Under the pieces are notes generated by a model. That model searched no databases. It was given only the letters and a program-made list of their open reading frames with translations, and was not told the DNA's origin. A stretch of DNA of 25,803 bases, from the IMG/VR virus record IMGVR_UViG_3300045988_092979, positions 1 to 25,803 of that record, one strand, 5' to 3'. Below, piece by piece: positions 1-19,396 of this stretch; the stretch's first letter is position 1, and every line of letters begins with the position of its first letter. Source of the stretch: a virus (lineage: Duplodnaviria > Heunggongvirae > Uroviricota > Caudoviricetes). The position numbers were made by a program, and so were the translations under genes.

Positions 1-501
1 ACGGACTGGCGCATTGTGCCGAAAGTTCCGGTCGTTGAGCCTTTGACTTTAAAAAGCGGCATCGCCGCGCCTCGGAGTCCTGTCAATAACTGTGGAAAGC
101 TCACTGGTGGTGATACTTCGTTACCGGCTCCCACACCTTCTGAGCACGCCGCAGCAGTGCTTAATCTGGTTGATGACGGTGTTATTGAATGGAATGAACC
201 GGAGGTCGTGAGGGCGCTCAGGGGCGCATTAAAACACGACCTGCGAACGCCAAACCGTCAGCAAAGAAACGGAAGCCCGTTAAAACCACATGAAATTGCA
301 CCATCGGCCAGACTGACCCGGTCGGAAAGAATGCAAATCACCCGTATCCGCGTTGACCTTGCTCAGAACGGTATCAGGCCGCAGCGATGGGAGCTTGAGG
401 CGCTGGCGCGTGGCGCGCCCGTAAATTATGACGGGAAAAAATTCACGTATCCGGTCGCTGATGAGTGGCCGGGATTCTCAACAGTAATGGAGTGGAAATG
501 A
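1..501 (+). CDS. 3' portion of a gene that begins upstream of the window; product uncertain, possibly a replication-module protein
   Basis: Reading frame is open from nt 1 with no in-frame stop; the track ORF at 16 begins on GTG. Stop TGA 499-501 overlaps the next start (ATGA). Lies upstream of the tin/old-equivalent position in P2 order. Confidence 0.4.
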   Translation, partial: TDWRIVPKVPVVEPLTLKSGIAAPRSPVNNCGKLTGGDTSLPAPTPSEHAAAVLNLVDDGVIEWNEPEVVRALRGALKHDLRTPNRQQRNGSPLKPHEIAPSARLTRSERMQITRIRVDLAQNGIRPQRWELEALARGAPVNYDGKKFTYPVADEWPGFSTVMEWK

Positions 502-1323: not shown

Positions 1324-2349
1324 ATGATGATTGTAAAGGTGATAGACCTTTTTTGTGGTGCTGGCGGATTAACTCATGGTTTGCAACTCGCAGGTCTTGA
1401 TGTCGTTGCTGGTATTGACCTTGAGGGGGAATGTCGATTTCCCTATGAAAAAAACAATAAATCAAAGTTTATTGAGAAAGATATCGCTAAAGTAACCAAA
1501 GAGGAATTACTGAAGCTATATGGTGATGCGTCTATAAAAGTATTGGCTGGATGTGCACCTTGCCAACCTTTTTCAAAATATACTCAAGGAAAAGATAAAG
1601 CGGAAGATAAAAAATGGCCTCTTCTTTATGAGTTCGAGCGTTTAATTCGCGAGGTATCTCCAGAAATTGTAACAATGGAGAACGTGCCTGATGTAACTAA
1701 ACATAAAGTTTATAATGACTTTTATTATTCGTTGTTAGAACTGGGATATTATGTTTGGGCATCAAAGGTTGATTGTGTCGAATATGGAATTCCACAGAAC
1801 CGTTCTCGTCATGTATTGTTAGCCTCAAAGTTGGGGGAGATTGAGTTAGTAAAACGTAATGATGTTATTTTGAAAACTGTTAGGGATGCAATAGGTGGTC
1901 TTCCACCATTAGAAGATGGTCAAACAGATCCAAATGATATATTGCATAGAGCCAGTAAATTAAACTCGATTAATAAAAAAAGAATTATACACTCTATTCC
2001 AGGTGGTACATGGAAGGACTGGCCGGAAGAACTTATTGCTGCTTGTCATATGAAGTCTAGCGGTAAAGGGTATGCTAGCGTATATGGGAGGATGTCTTGG
2101 GATAAGCCAAGCCCGACAATTACAACTCTTTGTTATGGTTTTGGGAATGGTCGTTTTGGCCACCCAGAACAGAACAGAGCTATTTCTCTTAGAGAAGCGG
2201 CTTTGTTGCAAACATTTCCTATGGATTATGTTTTTGTTGAAGAACAGGAAAAGTTTGTTATAAGAAGTATTGGAAAAATGATAGGTAATGCTGTACCAGT
2301 TGAGTTAGGAAAAGTCATTGGGCAATCAATAAAAAATCATTTGAAATAA
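1324..2349 (+). CDS. DNA (cytosine-5)-methyltransferase
   Basis: Canonical C5-MTase motifs in the translation: FCGAGG (motif I, AdoMet binding), PCQPFS (motif IV, catalytic Cys), ENVPD (motif VI), QNRSR (motif VIII), GNAVPV near the C-terminus (motif X). AT-rich relative to the phage backbone by eye. Confidence 0.9.
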   Translation: MMIVKVIDLFCGAGGLTHGLQLAGLDVVAGIDLEGECRFPYEKNNKSKFIEKDIAKVTKEELLKLYGDASIKVLAGCAPCQPFSKYTQGKDKAEDKKWPLLYEFERLIREVSPEIVTMENVPDVTKHKVYNDFYYSLLELGYYVWASKVDCVEYGIPQNRSRHVLLASKLGEIELVKRNDVILKTVRDAIGGLPPLEDGQTDPNDILHRASKLNSINKKRIIHSIPGGTWKDWPEELIAACHMKSSGKGYASVYGRMSWDKPSPTITTLCYGFGNGRFGHPEQNRAISLREAALLQTFPMDYVFVEEQEKFVIRSIGKMIGNAVPVELGKVIGQSIKNHLK

Positions 2350-2378: not shown

Positions 2379-3059
2379 TTATTTCTCTAAGTATTCATTA
2401 TTATTTATATAATGTTCTATATTATTCGCGATTGCATCAAGATAGGCTATTACTTCTAATGAAATATTCTCTAAATCCTGATATGAAACATTTTTCCCAA
2501 TCTCAGCAAATGATACATTTCCATGAGATAAATCATTGCGATGCTGTTTAACGGTGGCTAATTTTTCACCATGTTTAGTGTGAGTGTAATCAGAATGGGT
2601 TGAAAATCCATATATTTTCGATTTTTCTTTTATTTCCTCTCTATCAATATTGCCTGAAAATATTTTCTTTTTGTTGAATGTACCATAAGAAATACCACAG
2701 GATATGCCTTTAGTAAGTCCGCCGATTAAATTATCGATGTTAACAGATTCATTTTTTAATCTTTTTAAAATTTCTGATTTTAGGTTTTTTTTAAGTTTAT
2801 CAAACTCTATGTTTCTATCATAAATAGTCTCATGTATAAGGCAGATAGCCTCTCTCATTGTTGATTCAATAAGGTTGTATAATAGTATATACACTGCACC
2901 CTTTAGAGTTTTTCGTGATTGAGATGTAATGGTGAACTTATGTTCTTTATTATCGGATGATATCAATTCCGCACCAGCATGCTCAATAAATTTTAAAAGA
3001 TCTAAATAGGCCAAGATTTCTCCTGACCTTTCGTCAAAATCCTCACGAAAACGATCCAT
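2379..3059 (-). CDS. HEPN-like predicted RNase/effector protein (R-x4-H motif); second gene of a two-gene operon
   Basis: 226 aa; C-terminal region contains KQHRNDLSHG, matching the HEPN R-x4-H signature. Start ATG 3059-3057 preceded by GAGGA; separated by one nucleotide from the stop of the upstream DUF262 gene. AT-rich. Confidence 0.6.
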   Translation of the reverse strand: MDRFREDFDERSGEILAYLDLLKFIEHAGAELISSDNKEHKFTITSQSRKTLKGAVYILLYNLIESTMREAICLIHETIYDRNIEFDKLKKNLKSEILKRLKNESVNIDNLIGGLTKGISCGISYGTFNKKKIFSGNIDREEIKEKSKIYGFSTHSDYTHTKHGEKLATVKQHRNDLSHGNVSFAEIGKNVSYQDLENISLEVIAYLDAIANNIEHYINNNEYLEK

Positions 3060-3060
3060 G

Positions 3061-4203
3061 TTAATCCTCTAATAGTTTGTCTCGCACATATTCAATTCGT
3101 TCAATTACCTTCACGCGACTATTTGCTCCGTCGGAGGTGGTTAATTGTTTGAATTCTTCTGAGCTTAGCCAATCTAAGTTTTTGGGGACAAGGTTAGGCT
3201 CTAGACGTAATGCGAGTGCAGCACCAACAGCGAGAGATTCAAATCTAACTCGAGGTGTGGATTTTGCAGTGATAGTTTTCTTAAAGCCTGCTGGGAAATG
3301 GTTTTCAACGAAAGACAGAACATTCGAAAACTCTTCTTTCATTGAGTTTTGTTCAGCTTCATCTATATCACTCTTTTCCTTCATGTAATCATTCAGAAAA
3401 TCACGCACGGAATGATCAAATTTCTTATATTTATCTAAGTAAGCAAAGAATCTCAATGTAAATTCTAACCGTTCATCTCGTTTTTCTTTAGCCTCAGATA
3501 AAGGTGCTAACTCCTTAAATTTAGATATTGTCGAGCATGGCTTAATAACCTGCGTATATAAATTTGTTGAGCCAAGTTCTGAACCTTTACGAACTTCCAT
3601 ATCTTTCAATATGTCACTACCAGAGTTAATTCGCTCAAAAAGATCCCTGCGGGTTTCTTCATTGCATTTAGAACTCAACTCTATAACACGCACAGGAATT
3701 CTCATGAAACGGCGTTGGCGTGATAATGGTAAATCTTGGAATCTGAAACCATTAAGAGAACTTAAAGATTTCAGATCTTGTAAAACTAATTCATTGTGGA
3801 TAAACGCATGTATGGTTCTAACACGCTGTGAGCCATCAACAATTTCAATCCGTCCATCTAAATCGGGATCTTCTGAAAAGACATCAGCTGTAAATATATA
3901 TGGTATAGGGAAGCCCAAAATTAAAGACTCTATTAATCTTGATTGTCTCTTTTCATTCCAAACAAAGTCCCTTTGATAATCAGGAACAAAGAGTTCGTTG
4001 GTATCATCCTCTAACCCGTTATGATATTTATTAACTAATAACTCAACAGTAAATTCTTTGGTCTCAAAGTCAACATCCTTTTGCTCTGCGCGAATTTGCT
4101 CTTCAGCCTCTTGTTTTATAACTTCTAGCTGAGCTAGGAGTTCTGCCCTTTTTTTGGCATTATCTTCATGTTCTAGTTGAGATTTTAACCCAATAATATC
4201 CAT
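3061..4203 (-). CDS. DUF262 (ParB/sulfiredoxin-like NTP-binding) domain protein, GmrSD N-terminal-domain-like, without a fused DUF1524/HNH nuclease domain
   Basis: 380 aa; FVPDYQRDFVW and IEIVDGSQRV match the two hallmark DUF262 motifs (YQRxYxW and DGQQR). Start ATG 4203-4201 preceded by AAGGGA. AT-rich, coiled-coil-like N-terminus. Confidence 0.7.
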   Translation of the reverse strand: MDIIGLKSQLEHEDNAKKRAELLAQLEVIKQEAEEQIRAEQKDVDFETKEFTVELLVNKYHNGLEDDTNELFVPDYQRDFVWNEKRQSRLIESLILGFPIPYIFTADVFSEDPDLDGRIEIVDGSQRVRTIHAFIHNELVLQDLKSLSSLNGFRFQDLPLSRQRRFMRIPVRVIELSSKCNEETRRDLFERINSGSDILKDMEVRKGSELGSTNLYTQVIKPCSTISKFKELAPLSEAKEKRDERLEFTLRFFAYLDKYKKFDHSVRDFLNDYMKEKSDIDEAEQNSMKEEFSNVLSFVENHFPAGFKKTITAKSTPRVRFESLAVGAALALRLEPNLVPKNLDWLSSEEFKQLTTSDGANSRVKVIERIEYVRDKLLED

Positions 4204-4277
4204 ATCCAGATCCCTTAATGATTGTTATAAATGAAAACAGATAGCATACCGCATAGATCAGGAAAAATGCCATCGCA

Positions 4278-4294
4278 TGCATGAATTTGCATGA
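4278..4294. promoter_or_regulatory. candidate operator: direct repeat TGCATGA x2 with 10-bp register, in the promoter region of the minus-strand operon
   Basis: TGCATGA at 4278-4284 and 4288-4294, embedded in overlapping GCATGC/ATGCAT palindromes, about 75-90 nt upstream of the DUF262 start codon. Confidence 0.3.
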
Positions 4295-4387
4295 GAGAAA
4301 GATTACCATTTGGGATTAGCTTTGCCAGTGCTGATGGGTTTTGGAATTTAATCATGTACTGCATCAAAACCGCCTCATGAAGCGGGC

Positions 4388-4406
4388 GGGCGAGGCGGGG
4401 AAAGCA
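4388..4406. other. cos cohesive-end sequence of P2-type phage (GGCGAGGCGGGGAAAGCAC)
   Basis: Exact 19-nt string that I recall as the P2/P4 cohesive end. It lies between the tin/old-equivalent cargo and gene Q, as expected for P2 genome topology. Confidence 0.6.
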
Positions 4407-4549
4407 CTGCGCGCTGGCGGTGGTGCTGATTTTATTTTTTCAGCGTCTCAGCGCGTCGTAATGGCGTTTAGATTGTGCGCCGGGGCGCTGGTGTGTCTGC
4501 GGGCTGTTTTGTGCGGTGGTGAGTGTGTGAGGGCGTGATGACGGGGTGT

Positions 4550-4576: not shown

Positions 4577-5611
4577 TCAGCCGTTGTCTGTGTCCAGTGA
4601 GTAGTTTTTAAAGCGGATGACCTCCTGACCGAGCCAGCCGTTTATTTCCCGAATCCTGTCCTGTAACGGGATAAGCTCATTGCGGACAAAGACCTTTGCC
4701 ACTTTCTCAATATCACCCAGCGACCCGACGTTCTCCGGCTTGCCTCCCATCAACTGAAAGGGGATGCGGTGCGCGTCCAGCAGGTCAGCGGCGCTGGCTT
4801 TTTTGATATTAAAAAAATCGTCCTTCGTTGCCACTTCACTGAGCGGGATAATTTTAATGCCGTCGGCTTTCCCCTGTGGGGCATAGAGAAACAGGTTTTT
4901 AAAGTTGTTGCGGCCTTTCGACTTAACCATGTTTTCGCGAAGCATTTCGATATCGTTGCGATCCTGCACGGCATCGGTAACGTACATGATGTATCCGGCA
5001 TGCGCGCCGTTTTCGTAATACTTGCGGCGGAACAGTGTGGCCGACTCATTCAGCCAGGCAGAGTTAAGGGCGCTGAGATATTCCGGCAGGCCGTACAGCT
5101 CCTGATTAATATCCGGCTCCAGCAGGTGAAACACGGAGCCGGGCGCGAAGGCTGTCGGCTCGTTGAAGGACGGCACCCACCAGTAAACATCCTCCTCCAC
5201 GCCACGGCGGGTATATTTTGCCGGTGAGGTTTCCAGTCTGATGACCTTACCGGTGGTGCTGTAACGCTTTTCCAGAAACGCATTACCGAACACCAGAAAA
5301 TCCAGCACAAAGCGGCTGAAATCCTGTTGCGAAAGCCACGGGTGCGGAATAAACGTTGAAGCCAGAATATTACGTTTGACGTAAATCGGTGAACTGTGAT
5401 GCACGGCAGCACGCAGGCTTTTTGCCAGACCGGTAAAGCTGACCGGTGGCTCATACCATCTGCCGTTACTGATGCACTCGATGTAATCCAGAATGTCACG
5501 GCGGTCGAGTACCGGCACCGGTTCACCAAAGGTGAATGCCTCCATTTTCGGGGCGCTGGCGGTCATTTTTTTTGCCGCTGGTCGCGGTGTTTTCCCTTTT
5601 TTCTTGCTCAT
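4577..5611 (-). CDS. Q: portal (capsid portal vertex) protein
   Basis: 344 aa, the size and position of P2 gpQ; basic N-terminus MSKKKGKTPRPAAKK. Start overlaps the stop of P by 1 nt (translational coupling). Confidence 0.9.
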   Translation of the reverse strand: MSKKKGKTPRPAAKKMTASAPKMEAFTFGEPVPVLDRRDILDYIECISNGRWYEPPVSFTGLAKSLRAAVHHSSPIYVKRNILASTFIPHPWLSQQDFSRFVLDFLVFGNAFLEKRYSTTGKVIRLETSPAKYTRRGVEEDVYWWVPSFNEPTAFAPGSVFHLLEPDINQELYGLPEYLSALNSAWLNESATLFRRKYYENGAHAGYIMYVTDAVQDRNDIEMLRENMVKSKGRNNFKNLFLYAPQGKADGIKIIPLSEVATKDDFFNIKKASAADLLDAHRIPFQLMGGKPENVGSLGDIEKVAKVFVRNELIPLQDRIREINGWLGQEVIRFKNYSLDTDNG

Positions 5612-7383
5612 CAGTAAAACTCCAGAATGGTGGATGTCAGCGGAGTGCTGATACCCGCGGTGAGTGGCTCATTTAACAGGGCGTGCATGGTCGCCCAGGC
5701 GAGGTCGGCGTGGCTGGCTTCCTCGCTGCGGCTGGCCTCATAGGTGGCGCTGCGTCCGCTGCTGGTCATGGTCTTGCGGATAGCCATAAACGAGCTGGTG
5801 ATGTCGGTGGCGCTGACGTCATATTCCAGACAGCCACGGCGGATGACGTCTTTTGCCTTGAGCACCATTGCGGTTTTCATTTCCGGCGTGTAGCGGATGT
5901 CGCGCGCGGCGGGATAGAACGAGCGCACGAGCTGGAACACGCCGACACCGAGGCCGGTGGCATCAATACCGATGTATTCGACGTTATATTTTTCGGTGAG
6001 TTTGCGGATGGATTCAGCCTGGGTGGCAAAGTCCATGCCTTTCCACTGGTGACGCTCAAGTATTCTGAATTTGCCACCGGCCACCACCGGCGGTGCCAGC
6101 ACCACGCATCCGGCGCTGTCGCCACGGTGTGACGGGTCGTAACCAATCCAGACCGGGCGGGAGCCGAACGGATTCGCGGCAAACGGCGCATAGTCTTCCC
6201 ATTCTTCCAGCGTGTCGACCATGCAGCGTTGCAGCTCCTCGAACGGGAACACCGACGCCTTGTCGTCAACAAATTCACACATGAACAGGTTTTTAAAATC
6301 GTCGGCGCTGTTTTCACGTTTGAGCTGCTCAATGTCGAACAGCGTGCAGCCGCCTTTCAGGGCGTCCTCAATGGTGACAATCTGCCGCCACTGGCCGTCC
6401 GCACAGAGAAGACCTCCGGCAAGGGCGTTATGACTGACGTCGATTTCCACGCGTTCGGCGGCGCTGGCGCGTCCCCGGTTGAACAGTTCACCCGACCAGA
6501 ACGGGTAGGCGTCGTGCGCCAGCGTGGACGGGGTGGAGAAATAGGTCGAGCGCAGGTGACTCTGTGAGGCCATACCTGATGCCACCTTACGCAGTACCTG
6601 AAAATTCGGGATCCAGAAAATCTCGTCGACGTACAGGTCGCCGTTATGGCTCTGTGCGGTGTTGGAGTTGGTGCCGAGAAAAATCAGTTTTGCGCCGTTA
6701 TTGCCCAGGACAATCGGGTCACCGGTCAGGTCAACGTCAACCAGCCGGGCAAAGGCGATGATGTATTCGCGGAACACATACGCCTGCGTTTTACTGGCCG
6801 ACAGAAAAATCTGGTTATGACCGGTTTTCAGGGCGCGCAGCAGCGCCTCGCGGGAAAAATAAAACGTCGCGCCAATCTGGCGGGATTTCAGGATATCGCG
6901 GATGCGGTGCTCAAGCCCGGCGCGATACCAGTGCAACTGATATTCGAAAGACTGCTCAAAGAAAATCTGCTCCAGCTTTTCGATGGCCTCGTCACTGAAA
7001 AAATTCTTTTTCGGTTTGCGACGCCCGCCTTTGTTGCGGTTAGCGACGTTCGGATTAAGGTCTGCCTCGTTGCCGGTCTGACTGTAGCGGTTTACCCGTG
7101 CCAGTCGTTCAATCTGGCGTCCCAGCAGGTCAATTTCCTTGAAGTCACCGCCGGTTTTCTGCGGTTTGATGATGAGCTGGGTCAGTCGCGCTTCCAGACT
7201 CATTTCGACACGGCTGATGGGGGCAACGCTGTCCCAGCCGTCGCGCTGTTTCCAGCTCTGCACCGTCGGACGTTTCATCTGCAACATGGCGGCAATCTGC
7301 GGCACGGAAAACCCCTGCCAGTACAGCAGCGCCGCCTGACGACGCGGGTCGTGTAAAAGAGTGGTGTCTGTGGTGATGGTCAT
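5611..7383 (-). CDS. P: terminase large (ATPase) subunit
   Basis: Start chosen at ATG 7383 (MTITTDTTLLHDPRRQAALLYWQGF...), with GAGGT RBS upstream; the track ORF extends 10 codons further. Size about 590 aa and position match P2 gpP. Confidence 0.9.
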   Translation of the reverse strand: MTITTDTTLLHDPRRQAALLYWQGFSVPQIAAMLQMKRPTVQSWKQRDGWDSVAPISRVEMSLEARLTQLIIKPQKTGGDFKEIDLLGRQIERLARVNRYSQTGNEADLNPNVANRNKGGRRKPKKNFFSDEAIEKLEQIFFEQSFEYQLHWYRAGLEHRIRDILKSRQIGATFYFSREALLRALKTGHNQIFLSASKTQAYVFREYIIAFARLVDVDLTGDPIVLGNNGAKLIFLGTNSNTAQSHNGDLYVDEIFWIPNFQVLRKVASGMASQSHLRSTYFSTPSTLAHDAYPFWSGELFNRGRASAAERVEIDVSHNALAGGLLCADGQWRQIVTIEDALKGGCTLFDIEQLKRENSADDFKNLFMCEFVDDKASVFPFEELQRCMVDTLEEWEDYAPFAANPFGSRPVWIGYDPSHRGDSAGCVVLAPPVVAGGKFRILERHQWKGMDFATQAESIRKLTEKYNVEYIGIDATGLGVGVFQLVRSFYPAARDIRYTPEMKTAMVLKAKDVIRRGCLEYDVSATDITSSFMAIRKTMTSSGRSATYEASRSEEASHADLAWATMHALLNEPLTAGISTPLTSTILEFY

Positions 7384-7556
7384 GAATACCTCGCCGTGAT
7401 GAATACACGGCAAGGCTACTGAGTCGCGCCCCGCGATTCGCTAAGGTGCTGTTGTGTCAGTGATAAGCCATCCGGGACTGATGGCGGAGGATGCGCATCG
7501 TCGGGAAACTGATGCCGACATGTGACTCCTCTAATCACTATTCAGGACTCCTGACA
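7384..7556. promoter_or_regulatory. divergent late promoter region between P (minus) and O (plus)
   Basis: 173-bp intergenic gap between divergently transcribed operons, the position of the P2 PP/PO late promoters. Specific promoter elements not verified. Confidence 0.5.
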
Positions 7557-15716: not shown

Positions 15717-16320
15717 TTCGCGACTGCTGCCGACCGGCTCATCACCGCTTGAAGTCGCCGCCGCAAGAGCCTGTGCGGAAATTGAAAAAACGCCGGTCAG
15801 TATTCGTGAGCTGTGGAACCCGGATACCTGTCCGGCAAATCTGCTGCCGTGGCTGGCGTGGTCATTTTCGGTTGACCGCTGGGATGATAAGTGGCCGGAA
15901 GCGACAAAACGCGCTGTTATCCGCGATGCGTATTTCATTCACTGCCATAAGGGCACTATTGGTGCGATTCGCCGTGTGGTGGAGCCGCTCGGCTATCTGA
16001 TTGAGGTGAGGGAGTGGTGGCAGCTCAACGAGGAGCCGGGGACGTTCCGCATCGTTGTTGGCGTGCTTGAGCAGGGTATTACCGAGGAAATGTATCAGGA
16101 GCTGGAGCGTCTCGTTGCTGATGCAAAACCTGCAAGCCGCCATCTGACGGGACTGGCTATCAGTTTAAGTACAACCGGCAACATTTTTGCCGGTGCAGGA
16201 TGCTATCACGGCGACGCCCTGACGGTTTATCCCTACACCCCGGAGGCCATTATTGTCGGAGGGGATTATTTCCCGGCCTCGGCCATTCATTTAATTGATA
16301 ACCTGAGAGTAAACGCATGA
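15709..16320 (+). CDS. I: baseplate/tail protein I
   Basis: Follows J with an 8-nt overlap. 203 aa from this ATG (P2 gpI is smaller by recall, so the true start may be downstream). Confidence 0.75.
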   Translation: MSDSRLLPTGSSPLEVAAARACAEIEKTPVSIRELWNPDTCPANLLPWLAWSFSVDRWDDKWPEATKRAVIRDAYFIHCHKGTIGAIRRVVEPLGYLIEVREWWQLNEEPGTFRIVVGVLEQGITEEMYQELERLVADAKPASRHLTGLAISLSTTGNIFAGAGCYHGDALTVYPYTPEAIIVGGDYFPASAIHLIDNLRVNA

Positions 16321-17834
16321 CAGTGAAATACTACGCCATTCTGACTAATCAGGGCGCAGCACGGCTGGCTAACGCGACGATGCTCGGCAGTAAGCTGAAT
16401 CTGACGCAAATGGCCGTTGGTGATGCGAATGGTGTCTTGCCGACACCAGACCCGGCACAGACAAAACTGATTAACCAGAAACGCATCGCGCCGCTGAATC
16501 TTCTGAGTGTTGACCCGAACAACCAGAGCCAGATTATTGCGGAGCAAATCATCCCTGAGAACGAGGGCGGATTCTGGATCCGTGAGATTGGGCTTTATGA
16601 TGATGAAGGCGTACTCATTGCGGTGGCGAACTGCCCGGAAACGTACAAACCGCAGTTGCAGGAAGGCAGCGGTCGTACCCAGACTATCCGCATGATTCTG
16701 GTTGTCACGAATACCGAAGCTATCACGCTGAAAATCGACCCGTCGGTGGTACTGGCGACCCGTAAATACGTGGATGATGAAGTCCTGGAATTAAGGCTGT
16801 ATGTGGATGACCAGATGAGAAACCACATTGCCGCACAGGATCCTCATACCCAGTATGCACAGAAACATAATCCGACATTTACCGGAGAACCAAAAGCGCC
16901 GACGCCTGCCGCAGGAAATAACACCACGCGGATTGCGACCACTGAGTTTGTTCAGGCCGCTATTACCGCTCTGATTAACGGTGCGCCAGCCACGCTGGAC
17001 ACACTGAAAGAAATTGCCGCAGCCATTAACAATGACCCGAAATTCAGTACCACCATTAACAATGCGCTGTCAGGTAAGCAGCCACTGGATGAGACGCTGA
17101 CTCATTTGAGTGGGAAGGATGTTGCCGGTCTTCTTGCATACCTTGGTATTAAAGACGCATCAACAACACAGGTGGGTTTAGTCCGGTTAACCTCATCGCG
17201 GGTATCGGGTGCAGAGGATATTGCAGCCACAGCTAATGCTGTCGCGCAAAACTATACGGACATAAAATCTTTGCAAAACAAAACTCAGGATTCAACTACG
17301 ACACAGAAAGGAATTGTTCAACTTACATCATCAAGGGTATCCGAATCTGAAACGCTTGCTGCAACAGCAAAAGCGGCAGCGATGAATTATGCGGATATTG
17401 TAGCTCTGCAAGGCAAGACTAATGATGCAACCACTACAAACAAGGGAATTATCCGCGTATCTGATTCCAGAACATCAACAGAATCTGGTGTTGCTGCATC
17501 ATCACTTGCTGCATCACAAAACTATTCAGATATGAAAGGGTTGTTTGGTCAATGCGGAATGAAATCTAGAAATCTCGGTGTCGTATACACCAACAGCCAG
17601 TCTTTCGCCATATTTGTAAGCGTCAATGCGGTGCTGTCTGACGGTAGTTCATTTCTGAGCGCCAACGTTAATGTGGATGGTAATTCGGCTAATTTTCGCG
17701 GCTCTCAGACAACAAATCTTGCAGGGCAAAGAGCAACTATCGCATTCATGGTTCCTGCCGGTGCGACCTATATTGTGCAGCAGTTTTCAGGAACAGTGTC
17801 AGATGTTACCTGGGTAGAGGTGGATAAAAAATGA
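16317..17834 (+). CDS. H: tail fibre protein H; constant part to 17144, currently expressed variable C-terminal part 17145-17834
   Basis: 505 aa; N-terminal two-thirds in the canonical H position; the distal part contains three tandem ~45-aa repeats and is AT-rich. A hix-like crossover site lies in frame at 17131-17156. Confidence 0.85.
   Translation: MTVKYYAILTNQGAARLANATMLGSKLNLTQMAVGDANGVLPTPDPAQTKLINQKRIAPLNLLSVDPNNQSQIIAEQIIPENEGGFWIREIGLYDDEGVLIAVANCPETYKPQLQEGSGRTQTIRMILVVTNTEAITLKIDPSVVLATRKYVDDEVLELRLYVDDQMRNHIAAQDPHTQYAQKHNPTFTGEPKAPTPAAGNNTTRIATTEFVQAAITALINGAPATLDTLKEIAAAINNDPKFSTTINNALSGKQPLDETLTHLSGKDVAGLLAYLGIKDASTTQVGLVRLTSSRVSGAEDIAATANAVAQNYTDIKSLQNKTQDSTTTQKGIVQLTSSRVSESETLAATAKAAAMNYADIVALQGKTNDATTTNKGIIRVSDSRTSTESGVAASSLAASQNYSDMKGLFGQCGMKSRNLGVVYTNSQSFAIFVSVNAVLSDGSSFLSANVNVDGNSANFRGSQTTNLAGQRATIAFMVPAGATYIVQQFSGTVSDVTWVEVDKK
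17131..17156. other. hix/gix-like 26-bp inversion crossover site (left), inside H
   Basis: TTCTTGCATACC-TT-GGTATTAAAGAC: 12-bp half-sites around a 2-bp core; left half matches the Salmonella hixL half-site TTCTTGAAAACC at 10/12 (from memory). Core TT is complementary to core AA of the right site. Confidence 0.6.
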
Positions 17835-18199
17835 TAACAATGATGAAGTATTACAAAGATGAAAATAACGTCGTATATGCCTACGATGCGTATGGCACAC
17901 AGGATGCTTTTATCAAAGAAGGGCTTGTGCCAATCACCAGAAGTGAGGCTATGGCAATTATTAATCCCCCACCGACTCATGAACAACTCATCCAGGCTGC
18001 TGAAAATGAGCGACAGCGATTACTGTCCGCCGCTGATGCAATTATGCTCGACTGGCGCACAGAGCTGATGCTGGGTGAAATCAGCGATGCCAACAGAGCT
18101 AAACTTTCGGCGTGGCTTTTATATAAGAATCAGGTTAAGGCTGTTGATGTAACAACCGACCCTGAGCATGTTAACTGGCCTGTCATCCCGGAACTTTAG
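17831..18199 (+). CDS. G: tail fibre assembly chaperone (Tfa)
   Basis: 122 aa immediately after H with ATGA overlap; ends in a WPxxP-type motif (NWPVIPEL) typical of Tfa proteins. AT-rich. Confidence 0.7.
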   Translation: MITMMKYYKDENNVVYAYDAYGTQDAFIKEGLVPITRSEAMAIINPPPTHEQLIQAAENERQRLLSAADAIMLDWRTELMLGEISDANRAKLSAWLLYKNQVKAVDVTTDPEHVNWPVIPEL

Positions 18200-18205
18200 A
18201 CCATA

Positions 18206-18250
18206 CTGGTCTTGCTACATCAATGCGCATCAGCAAGACCAGCTATTTTC
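18206..18250 (+). terminator. stem-loop/terminator after the tail-fibre assembly gene
   Basis: 11-bp perfect inverted repeat CTGGTCTTGCT / AGCAAGACCAG (18206-18216 and 18232-18242) with a 15-nt loop, followed by CTATTTTC. Confidence 0.5.
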
Positions 18251-18301
18251 AAACTAAGCAACATAGCCCTCCGCTACTCCTCCTGTTCGAAACGAACGTT
18301 T

Positions 18302-18733
18302 TCATGCCGCCCTTACGATATAATTAAACGCAATGTTACGAGGACGAATGGTTACATAATTAACCCCATCACCTCGTGAAGGCCCTGCAAATGAAAAACG
18401 GGAAAATCCTGGTTGGTTAGAAACAATTTGGTCATAGTTATTGATTGAATGACCAGACCCAATGTCGAAATTACCTCCGTAATGAGAAAAACTTGTACCA
18501 TCCTGCCCTGAAAGCAGGGTACGTCCCGCATCAATCCCGCGCCCATCATCCCAGCCACGGATAAATTCACCGCGTAAATCCGGTAATTTATTGGTGGGGT
18601 AGGCTTTTGCCAGTTTGGGATACATTTCAGAAGAAAATGCTGCACCATTGCATTTTAGCCAGCCCGTTGGTGGTGTTTCTAAGGGCCACGGAACGGGCAC
18701 ACCAACAGGCAGTGCAGAGCCTTCCCCCAAACC
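18302..18733 (-). CDS. silent, start-less alternative tail-fibre C-terminal cassette in inverted orientation
   Basis: Translation (…GWLKCNGAAFSSEMYPKLAKAYPTNKLPDLRGEFIRGWDDGRGID…) is a classic P2 H / Mu S-type fibre C-terminus. Its 5' end coincides with the right crossover site, so the track ATG at 18775 is not a real start. Confidence 0.7.
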   Translation of the reverse strand, partial: GLGEGSALPVGVPVPWPLETPPTGWLKCNGAAFSSEMYPKLAKAYPTNKLPDLRGEFIRGWDDGRGIDAGRTLLSGQDGTSFSHYGGNFDIGSGHSINNYDQIVSNQPGFSRFSFAGPSRGDGVNYVTIRPRNIAFNYIVRAA

Positions 18734-18747
18734 AACGTTTATGAAAA
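18722..18747. other. hix/gix-like 26-bp inversion crossover site (right)
   Basis: TTCCCCCAAACC-AA-CGTTTATGAAAA: 19/26 identity to hixL TTCTTGAAAACCAAGGTTTTTGATAA (from memory), conserved AAACC..GTTT inner positions, 56 bp upstream of the invertase start. Confidence 0.6.
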
Positions 18748-18802
18748 TGCAGAGACAACGGGTAACTGGCATCATCTCCGGTTTTTATTCAGGGGGATGC
18801 TC

Positions 18803-19396
18803 ATGCTTATTGGCTATGTACGCGTGTCAACAAATGACCAGAACACGGAATTGCAGCGTAACGCGCTGGAGTGCGCAGGATGTGAGCTGATTTTTGAGGA
18901 TAAAATCAGCGGCACTAAGTCCGACCGACCGGGACTGAAAAAACTGCTCAGGACATTATCGGAGGGGGATACACTGGTGGTCTGGAAGCTGGACAGGCTG
19001 GGGCGTAGTATGCGGCATCTGGTCATTCTGGTTGAGGAGCTGCGCGAACGCGGCGTTAATTTTCGCAGCCTGACGGATGCTATTGATACCAGCACGCCGA
19101 TGGGGCGTTTTTTCTTTCATGTGATGGGTGCCCTGGCTGAAATGGAACGAGAACTCATTGTCGAGCGGACACGCGCCGGACTGGAAGCGACCAGAGCTAA
19201 AGGTCGTATTGGTGGCAGACGTCCGAAGCTCACCGCGAGTGAGTGGGAACAGGCAGGACGGTTGCTGGCTGCGGGTGAATCACGTCAACGCGTGGCGCTG
19301 ATTTTTGATATTGGCCTGTCCACGCTCTATAAAAAATTCCCCTCATCAGCGACAAAGAATAAATTGTGTCATCCCTTAGCCAACCGGGACAAATAG
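18803..19396 (+). CDS. site-specific DNA invertase, serine recombinase of the Hin/Gin/Cin/Pin family
   Basis: N-terminus MLIGYVRVSTNDQ with the catalytic serine, and near colinear similarity to Gin as I recall it (…LVVWKLDRLGRSM…GRFFFHVMGALAEMERELI…GRIGGRRPKL…). GGGGG RBS upstream; the track ORF starts two codons earlier. Confidence 0.9.
   Translation: MLIGYVRVSTNDQNTELQRNALECAGCELIFEDKISGTKSDRPGLKKLLRTLSEGDTLVVWKLDRLGRSMRHLVILVEELRERGVNFRSLTDAIDTSTPMGRFFFHVMGALAEMERELIVERTRAGLEATRAKGRIGGRRPKLTASEWEQAGRLLAAGESRQRVALIFDIGLSTLYKKFPSSATKNKLCHPLANRDK

Follow-up and report, generated by a model that had tools for sequence, protein, structure and literature searches.

A three-gene DUF262, HEPN and C5-cytosine methyltransferase cassette in the P2 gpA-cos-gpQ hotspot as a candidate restriction-modification-like defence module

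The tailed-phage DNA of the IMG/VR record IMGVR_UViG_3300045988_092979 (Caudoviricetes; positions 1 to 25,803, the whole of which we analysed and refer to as the window) carries a horizontally acquired cassette of three genes, lodged in a P2-like prophage at its gpA-cos-gpQ hotspot. The genes encode a DUF262 protein, which we call A, a HEPN protein, B, and a C5 cytosine methyltransferase, M. We consider it about an even call that the cassette is a restriction-modification-like module for superinfection exclusion or defence, in which M would mark self, A would sense and B would act as the effector. The open reading frames (ORFs) of A and B are present as an initial annotation had described them, and the cassette is laid out as follows.

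Positions 1324 to 2349, plus strand: M, C5 DNA cytosine methyltransferase, assigned from Pfam, NCBIfam, PADLOC and its motifs.
Positions 2356 to 2372, both strands: a bidirectional intrinsic-terminator-like hairpin between the convergent stop codons of M and B.
Positions 2379 to 3059, minus strand: B, a stand-alone HEPN protein of the MAE_28990 family, 226 amino acids, assigned from Pfam PF18737.
Positions 3061 to 4203, minus strand: A, an NsnA-like DUF262 protein, 380 amino acids, assigned from Pfam PF03235 and PADLOC.
Positions 4204 to 4388, minus strand: the 5' region of the A-B operon, between cos and the ATG of A.

An alignment of B homologues was used to fetch related loci, giving 133 in total (80 from genomes and 53 from IMG/VR viral contigs). 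The genome set consists of contigs from one genome per species, and its 80 loci are the best of 510, mostly from cyanobacteria. ORFs in the loci were called mechanically, and many loci come from metagenome-assembled genomes, so that frameshifts and gene remnants can be assembly artefacts. A relative of B is encoded in the genomes of 510 species, chiefly cyanobacteria with some gammaproteobacteria, Bacteroidales and Acidobacteria. In each of the 80 genome loci, and in all viral loci that extend over B, the gene directly upstream of B is A.

M orthologues, 51-100% identical, are directly adjacent to A-B in 88 of the 133 loci. Among the genome loci this holds for 39 of 80 (phmmer E values of 1e-115 to 1e-208), usually in convergent orientation and often with the stop codons of B and M overlapping by 4 nt. 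The full trio is present in 49 of the 53 viral contigs; three of the others are cut at the contig end, and in one the place of M is taken by a different C5 methylase. Gene order varies across the 133 loci, with A>B><M in 72, M>A>B in 15, A>B>M in one and A>B only in 43, and the trio loci span cyanobacteria, gammaproteobacteria, Bacteroidales and Acidobacteria as well as the 49 viral contigs. For the 65 loci whose B is less than 50% identical to that of the window, mean identities to the window are 49% for A, 36% for B and 57% for M, with M higher than B in every one of the 65; on these figures M is the most conserved partner of the trio. Because the linkage of M persists through changed gene order and across phyla, with M the most conserved member, we conclude that the functional unit is A-B-M, three genes rather than the two-gene operon of the initial annotation. 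A metagenome-assembled genome of the Methylococcaceae (L004, 3240-4304) has a second, unrelated C5-methyltransferase (E 3.4e-27 to M) right behind the orthologue.

Protein A matches the Pfam family GmrSD_N/DUF262 (PF03235) with an E value of 6.6e-27 and 95.4 bits against a cutoff of 33.2. Its architecture comprises an N-terminal helix or coiled coil (residues ~1-45), a ParB-like DUF262 nucleoside triphosphate (NTP)-binding domain (58-206) and a helical C-terminal domain (~210-380). The two hallmark motifs read by the initial annotation, FVPDYQRDFVW and DGSQR, occupy residues 72-82 and 123-127. In the motif nomenclature of GmrSD-type enzymes (QR, DGxQR and FxxxN; PMC12137116), QR falls at residues 77-78 and FxxxN at 189-193. 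Q77, R78, D123, G124, Q126, R127, F189 and N193 are invariant among 32 homologues; the middle motif is DG(T/S/A/V/L)QR in all 125 of 125 copies, and the canonical DGQQR occurs in none. The initial annotation had stated that A lacks the DUF1524 nuclease half, and Pfam indeed gave no DUF1524/HNH match in A or B.

The best PADLOC match of A is NsnA (E 3.3e-55, profile positions 23-376 of 385), followed by PD-T4-2_A (PDLC04027; E 1.2e-34, profile positions 55-356 of 363). Matches to the PADLOC models SspE, HEC-05 and HEC-06 reach no further than the initial ~70-100 residues of the domain. The profile match to NsnA fits the ParB-DUF262 plus ParBDB DNA-binding domain architecture described for that protein (PMC12065111). 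In a profile comparison with PDB sequences, A matched the DUF262 protein 20yv (E 0.0034) and BrxU 7p9k (E 0.0091), and no NCBIfam model matched either A or B.

Protein B is covered over residues 5-223 of 226 by the Pfam family HEPN_MAE_28990 (PF18737; E 2.8e-29, 103.2 bits against a cutoff of 26.8), with a second Pfam match to HEPN_RiboL-PSP (PF18735; E 2e-8). It has the helical HEPN fold. The motif HRNDLSH, from which the initial annotation had called a HEPN protein with R-x4-H, corresponds to residues 173-179 and gives R174-x4-H179 (R174-N-D-L-S-H179-G). R174, N175, L177, H179 and G180 are at least 90% conserved in an alignment of 32 homologues, and RNxL(A/S)HG is found in nearly all of the 131 locus copies of B. 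B is predicted to be an RNase effector with a dimeric Rx4H site. PADLOC returned no match for B at E<=1, nor for the B proteins of five related loci.

M matches Pfam DNA_methylase (E 7.6e-58), the dcm superfamily of NCBIfam (E 7.4e-37) and the PADLOC models DrmMII (5e-92) and MTase_II (4.5e-88). It contains the motifs FCGAGG (I), PCQ with the catalytic C80 (IV), ENV (VI), QNRSR (VIII) and GNAVP (X), and PCQ, ENV and QxRxR are all intact in 87 of the 88 M orthologues. M thus has all the catalytic motifs and is tightly linked to A-B, as the restriction-modification (R-M) sense of the cassette would have it; its activity is predicted from these motifs. The variable target-recognition region, around residues 175-285, has a conservation of 0.61, compared with 0.53 for the catalytic half. 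Conservation of the recognition region equals or exceeds that of the catalytic half, which suggests a single recognition specificity across the family. The recognition site could not be taken from PDB relatives (M.HaeIII, M.HhaI and DNMT1), which match the catalytic core only, at E 1e-20 or weaker.

The proposed mechanism builds on the gene set with its domains and motifs, on the HEPN fold of B, on the place of the cassette in the hotspot and on the deep, order-independent A-B-M linkage; from these we infer the target and activity of M, the signal sensed by A and its direction, the RNase activity of B and the phage-defence phenotype. M would write a sequence-specific 5-methylcytosine (5mC) mark on resident DNA. 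A would read the modification state of DNA through its DUF262 and C-terminal DNA-binding domains, by analogy with GmrSD, BrxU and SspE, where DUF262 is a modification reader and NTPase (PMC10952713; PMC12137116). On unmarked DNA A would, by NTP binding or hydrolysis, switch on B, whose dimeric Rx4H HEPN site would cleave RNA and so abort the infection. The sensor/effector logic of the initial annotation appears reasonable in this light. A more specific form, an R-M system with RNA cleavage as its 'restriction' output and an A-B core re-used with host-encoded methylases in cyanobacteria, is a tentative proposal that we hold to be possible rather than probable. If it is true, epigenetic discrimination of self from non-self on DNA would be linked to an RNase that aborts infection rather than to a DNase.

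A number of observations weigh against the self-mark, sensor and effector mechanism. The AlphaFold2 model of A has a moderate pLDDT (predicted local distance difference test) score of 76.6, and a Foldseek search with that model ranked ParB proteins first with E values of 0.27-1.5, which are not significant and are given no weight here for its fold. No match to the sigma-70 consensus was found in positions 4204-4388, and the A-B promoter was not identified there. It is possible that A is a DNase in its own right, and 'ParB nuclease' is the term that Aravind's group applies to it. The system PD-T4-2 (DUF262 plus HEPN, from ECOR65) protects against T4 in K-12 and, as judged by deletion, in the native strain (Vassallo et al. 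2022, PMC9519451); in K-12 it does so when cloned without any methylase. Furthermore, in the 43 A>B-only loci A and B are intact and motif-complete without M, and remnants of M are present in two of these duos (L015 and L072). The M gene of Peduovirus P24B2 (LR595873.1; L135, 2021-3041) is frameshifted near residue 228 beside intact A and B, which may be a sequencing error or mark a trio that is naturally M-defective. A-B is not necessarily lethal without a linked M, and strict R-M logic fits only with a substituting methylase; the repeated loss of M beside an intact A-B speaks against a strict dependence on it. In the M-less genomes, either another methylase may substitute or the A-B core may work without M as in PD-T4-2. 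Large ORFs flanking the M-less loci were considered as alternative methylases and rejected, being aconitase B, ClpB, SecA and CobN.

The history of M loss was examined in a neighbour-joining tree of concatenated A and B, built without bootstrap or other support values. Trios occur on all deep branches of this tree, and the duos fall into at least 4-5 nested clades made up almost wholly of cyanobacteria; the sample shows M loss only in cyanobacterial chromosomal lineages. Because trios hold every deep branch and duos are nested, the trio is ancestral on this tree, with M lost repeatedly and A-B retained.

Since M loss is tolerated in cyanobacteria and PD-T4-2 is free of a methylase, an orphan methylase, a PrrC-like guard and an Ssp-like licensing mark are all live rivals. 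The first of these takes A-B, in line with the initial annotation, as a self-contained two-gene sensor and effector pair of the PD-T4-2 type and M as an independent orphan methylase that shields phage DNA from host restriction. It draws on the function of PD-T4-2 without a methylase, on the M-less A-B duos of cyanobacteria, the IncF plasmid pVE155 and a Klebsiella phage of the Peduoviridae, on the decay of M beside intact A-B, and on the lone DNA_methylase genes found among other P2 hotspot cargos. We nevertheless think it unlikely, as an orthologous M (51-73% identity where B is at 20-33%) stays adjacent across phyla and in two gene orders, every evaluable viral contig has the trio bar the one with a different C5-methyltransferase, and M loss is seen in cyanobacterial chromosomal lineages alone; chance or hitch-hiking does not explain this pattern.

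The non-lethal loss of M would also be explained if methylation were needed for defence rather than for self-protection, with 5mC from M on host DNA binding and stimulating A as phosphorothioate does SspE. The A-B complex would thereby be kept poised, and would then attack non-self. There is a precedent in SspE, where the modification that the host itself carries stimulates the DUF262 NTPase (PMC10952713). On such a scheme A-B should decay after M is lost, yet large duo clades keep motif-complete A and B, and we judge it quite unlikely.

In many cyanobacteria, mostly Nostocales, the M-less A-B pair lies ~0.2-0.6 kb downstream of an aconitase-B-sized ORF on the same strand (L025, L026, L028, L030, L032, L035, L036, L043, L048, L050, L051, L053, L054, L058, L070 and L080), and aconitase B was confirmed by Pfam in three of these loci. 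This synteny suggests a vertically inherited chromosomal duo that is possibly domesticated. Two further DUF262 plus HEPN duos, each without an annotated methylase, were noted on mobile elements. One is on the conjugative Escherichia coli IncFIA plasmid pVE155 (L134, 2825-4525), beside parM; the other is in the Klebsiella phage ST16-OXA48phi5.4 of the Peduoviridae (L137, 2363-4266), at the second P2 hotspot, with tail-fibre genes on one side and tail genes on the other. No PADLOC model matched the HEPN protein of either duo. The two duos were also tried as anchors to PD-T4-2 and were of no help, their behaviour in PADLOC being the same as that of the window proteins.

The junction of A and B reads GAGGATTAAcATG, with the TAA of A, a single base and the ATG of B, and a GAGGA Shine-Dalgarno sequence upstream, which confirms the translational coupling across a 1-nt spacer proposed in the initial annotation. 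On the other side of B, 29 nt separate the end of M from the stop codon of B, with nothing between the two but the hairpin at 2356-2372 (GGCCTGC-AAA/TTT-GCAGGCC), which has a 7-bp stem with six GC pairs and T-runs on both strands. This arrangement bears on the guard explanation, in which A would be a ParB-fold DNase forming an R-M pair with M, and B a latent RNase held by A as a suicide back-up. A PrrC-like model of this type, with the RNase released once the R-M arm is neutralised, has been proposed for HEPN genes inside R-M operons (PMC3710099). The tight A-B coupling fits a complex, and type II systems classically have R and M convergent on a shared terminator. In contrast, characterised DUF262 domains are NTPases or sensors, with cleavage carried out by a separate DUF1524 domain that is absent from A, and B is never missing beside A in 131 loci although one would expect a back-up module to be dispensable. 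A guard of this kind is likewise an unlikely explanation, and the reading of M as self mark, A as sensor and B as effector is the one that we carry forward.

The remaining features of the hotspot are the following.

Positions 16 to 501, plus strand: the 3' end of the P2 replication endonuclease gpA, one border of the hotspot, as annotated by the Prokaryotic Genome Annotation Pipeline (PGAP) in the E. coli GN04592 prophage, which is 99.4% identical.
Positions 465 to 953: a DUF3850/ASCH plus DUF7415 gene, extra hotspot cargo, assigned from Pfam.
Positions 941 to 1165: a 74-amino-acid ORF, extra hotspot cargo, upstream of M.
Positions 4389 to 4407, plus strand: the P2 cos cohesive-end sequence, a hotspot boundary, an exact 19/19 match.
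Positions 4577 to 5611, minus strand: the portal protein gpQ, the hotspot border on the cos side (Pfam Phage_portal; PGAP 'phage portal protein').
Positions 5611 to 7413: the large terminase, beyond cos and after the portal gene.

The 19-nt P2 cos sequence, GGCGAGGCGGGGAAAGCAC, is exact in the window, has no match in 100 shuffles and lies 186 nt from the ATG of A. Together with the gpA and portal flanks, it bears out the position near cos, in the P2 tin/old (gpA-gpQ) hotspot, that the initial annotation had assigned. The motif, profile and cos signals all lie well outside chance expectation. Between gpA and cos there are only the DUF3850 gene, the 74-amino-acid ORF, M, B and A. The GC content of this cargo block is 30-38% compared with 52-60% for the P2 backbone. 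The GN04592 prophage has the order gpA, DUF3850, hypothetical, methyltransferase, HEPN, DUF262, cos and portal, and PGAP names its three cassette products 'DUF262 domain-containing protein', 'MAE_28990/MAE_18760 family HEPN-like nuclease' and 'DNA cytosine methyltransferase'. PGAP has no annotation in that prophage for the region corresponding to 4204-4388. A 50-codon ORF at 4215-4367, in the interval between cos and A, was considered as a gene or controller and rejected, its peptide being 47% identical in an allele whose A is 93% identical. The DUF3850 gene also adjoins a diverged trio allele in L114 and L116 (92% identity). In the GN04592 prophage, outside the window, a gene of the phosphoadenosine phosphosulfate reductase family (L136, 2007-3014) lies immediately upstream of the replication endonuclease.

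The hotspot position is also relevant to a non-defence explanation, according to which the cassette, a methylase joined to a toxin-like pair, would be selfish and would serve addiction or epigenetic control, keeping the prophage stable or governing its genes. Addiction is a known role of R-M-like modules, and HEPN proteins are common toxins. Against this, many cargos of this hotspot have been validated as anti-phage (PMC9122126; PMC9519451) and the closest tested relatives of the cassette are defence systems, so that we regard a non-defence role as very unlikely.

The trio stands beside a P2-type portal gene in at least 25 IMG/VR contigs, 11 of which have a recognisable cos. At least three strongly diverged alleles of the trio occupy this same P2 hotspot (L111-L116; L135; H107-H109). 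In L111-L116 the portal is 75-99% identical to that of the window, but A is only ~45%, B ~31% and M ~72% identical; Peduovirus P24B2 has a further diverged trio at the same locus, with A 47% identical. Sensor and effector genes are either diverging far more rapidly than the methylase gene or being exchanged. Among 5,426 complete E. coli genomes the allele group of the window was found in 9, a second allele in 4 and a third in 3 (~16 in total), and ~2,150 of these genomes match the flanks only. The allele of the window is in no deposited phage genome of the INPHARED set. The HEPN protein family comprises 1,752 clusters at 50% identity. Hence the cassette is rare in E. coli and widespread elsewhere.

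Elsewhere in the window, a block of low GC content (0.44-0.45) follows the tail-fibre gene over positions 16317 to 19396.

Positions 16317 to 17834: tail fibre H, in the low-GC block.
Positions 17831 to 18199: tail-fibre assembly gene, in the low-GC block.
Positions 18302 to 18775, minus strand: Collar-domain ORF, in the opposite orientation.
Positions 18797 to 19396: serine recombinase/invertase (Resolvase plus HTH_7, E 1e-51).

The block looks like an invertible tail-fibre cassette of the Mu-G/P1-C type, which to our knowledge is not in reference P2. No convincing long inverted repeats or recombination sites were found around the invertase gene.

The combination of genes in the window has been catalogued before. 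Anantharaman et al. 2013 (PMC3710099) listed a MAE_28990-HEPN/ParB/DNA-methylase operon, and Rousset et al. 2022 (PMC9122126), who catalogued 18,150 P2 gpA-gpQ loci, have the gene families of the trio among the cargo in their Table S5A. All three genes, the Pfam families and the P2 gpA-gpQ locus are the same as in the window, with no structural difference, and both descriptions are comparative-genomic only. By its sequence, which agrees with every testable feature, the cassette belongs to this operon family. The table of cloned systems of Rousset et al. contains no DUF262 system, and the window proteins had no sequence match among the entries listed in the supplements of that study. We found in the literature that could be searched no experimental or mechanistic study of the trio family and no mechanistic paper on PD-T4-2 or PD-lambda-5. 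The description of the pair as 'undescribed' in the initial annotation does not stand, given the catalogues of 2013 and 2022, the PGAP names for all the genes and the validation of PD-T4-2 with the same two-gene architecture. Of the two outcomes that the initial annotation had said would refute it, the first did not occur, the profile searches having upheld the HEPN identity, and the second is only approached, the pair being a catalogued family with characterised relatives rather than a mechanistically characterised system.

The nearest tested systems, PD-T4-2 and PD-lambda-5, were compared through PADLOC profiles and published HHpred tables. PD-T4-2 resembles the window in having DUF262 followed by HEPN, in the match of A to the PD-T4-2_A model and in its PD-T4-2B, which is HEPN_RiboL-PSP/MAE_28990 by HHpred. 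It differs in the length of the operon (1540 bp versus 1825 bp), in a B of ~165 amino acids and in having been cloned without a methylase; moreover, the B of the window fails the PADLOC PD-T4-2_B model (E<=1) and its A scores higher on NsnA. The two B proteins fall in the same Pfam clan and their homology is remote. PD-lambda-5, which gives broad protection of E. coli (Vassallo et al. 2022, PMC9519451), is similar in module content, with a ParB-like domain, HEPN and a DNA methylase. Its ParB and HEPN parts are fused and its methylase is a D12-class N6-adenine enzyme (PF02086), whereas the window has separate proteins for the two parts and a C5-cytosine methylase. For ParB domains of COG1479/DUF262 fusion to HEPN is frequent, as in DndB (Makarova et al. 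2013, PMC3632139).

Menshen is defined by NsnA, the ABC-ATPase/DUF3696 protein NsnB and the inPIN-nuclease NsnC (PMC12065111; Millman 2022, Li et al. 2025). A is NsnA-like, with ParB-DUF262 plus a DNA-binding ('ParBDB') region at the C terminus, but NsnB and NsnC are absent from the window locus, where a HEPN partner is found instead, and the cassette is hence not Menshen. PADLOC v2 would probably not call the cassette, because A matches both NsnA and PD-T4-2_A and B matches nothing; at the least it would under-report it. GmrSD, BrxU and SspE share with A the N-terminal DUF262 with QR, DGxQR and FxxxN. In contrast to these enzymes, A lacks the DUF1524 His-Me nuclease half, and so is not of the GmrSD type; the HEPN effector is separate and the locus is methylase-linked. 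The separate HEPN effector and the methylase linkage argue against a 5mC logic that is purely modification-dependent (type IV). PrrC-EcoprrI likewise embeds a HEPN RNase in a DNA modification and restriction context, but PrrC carries an ABC-type NTPase domain of its own and is partnered by a type I R-M system, and its homology to the window is that of the HEPN fold only.

Collectively, these comparisons place the catalogued cassette as a putative methylase-coupled variant of the DUF262-HEPN kind of defence system. To the earlier catalogues our analysis adds the three-gene unit, a slowest-evolving methylase whose recognition region is conserved, at least three diverged alleles in the P2 hotspot and a repeated loss of M seen only in cyanobacterial chromosomes. 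The M-linked version also provides an experimental handle: if M defines 'self', what DUF262 reads and how a DNA signal is passed to an RNase become questions that can be asked.

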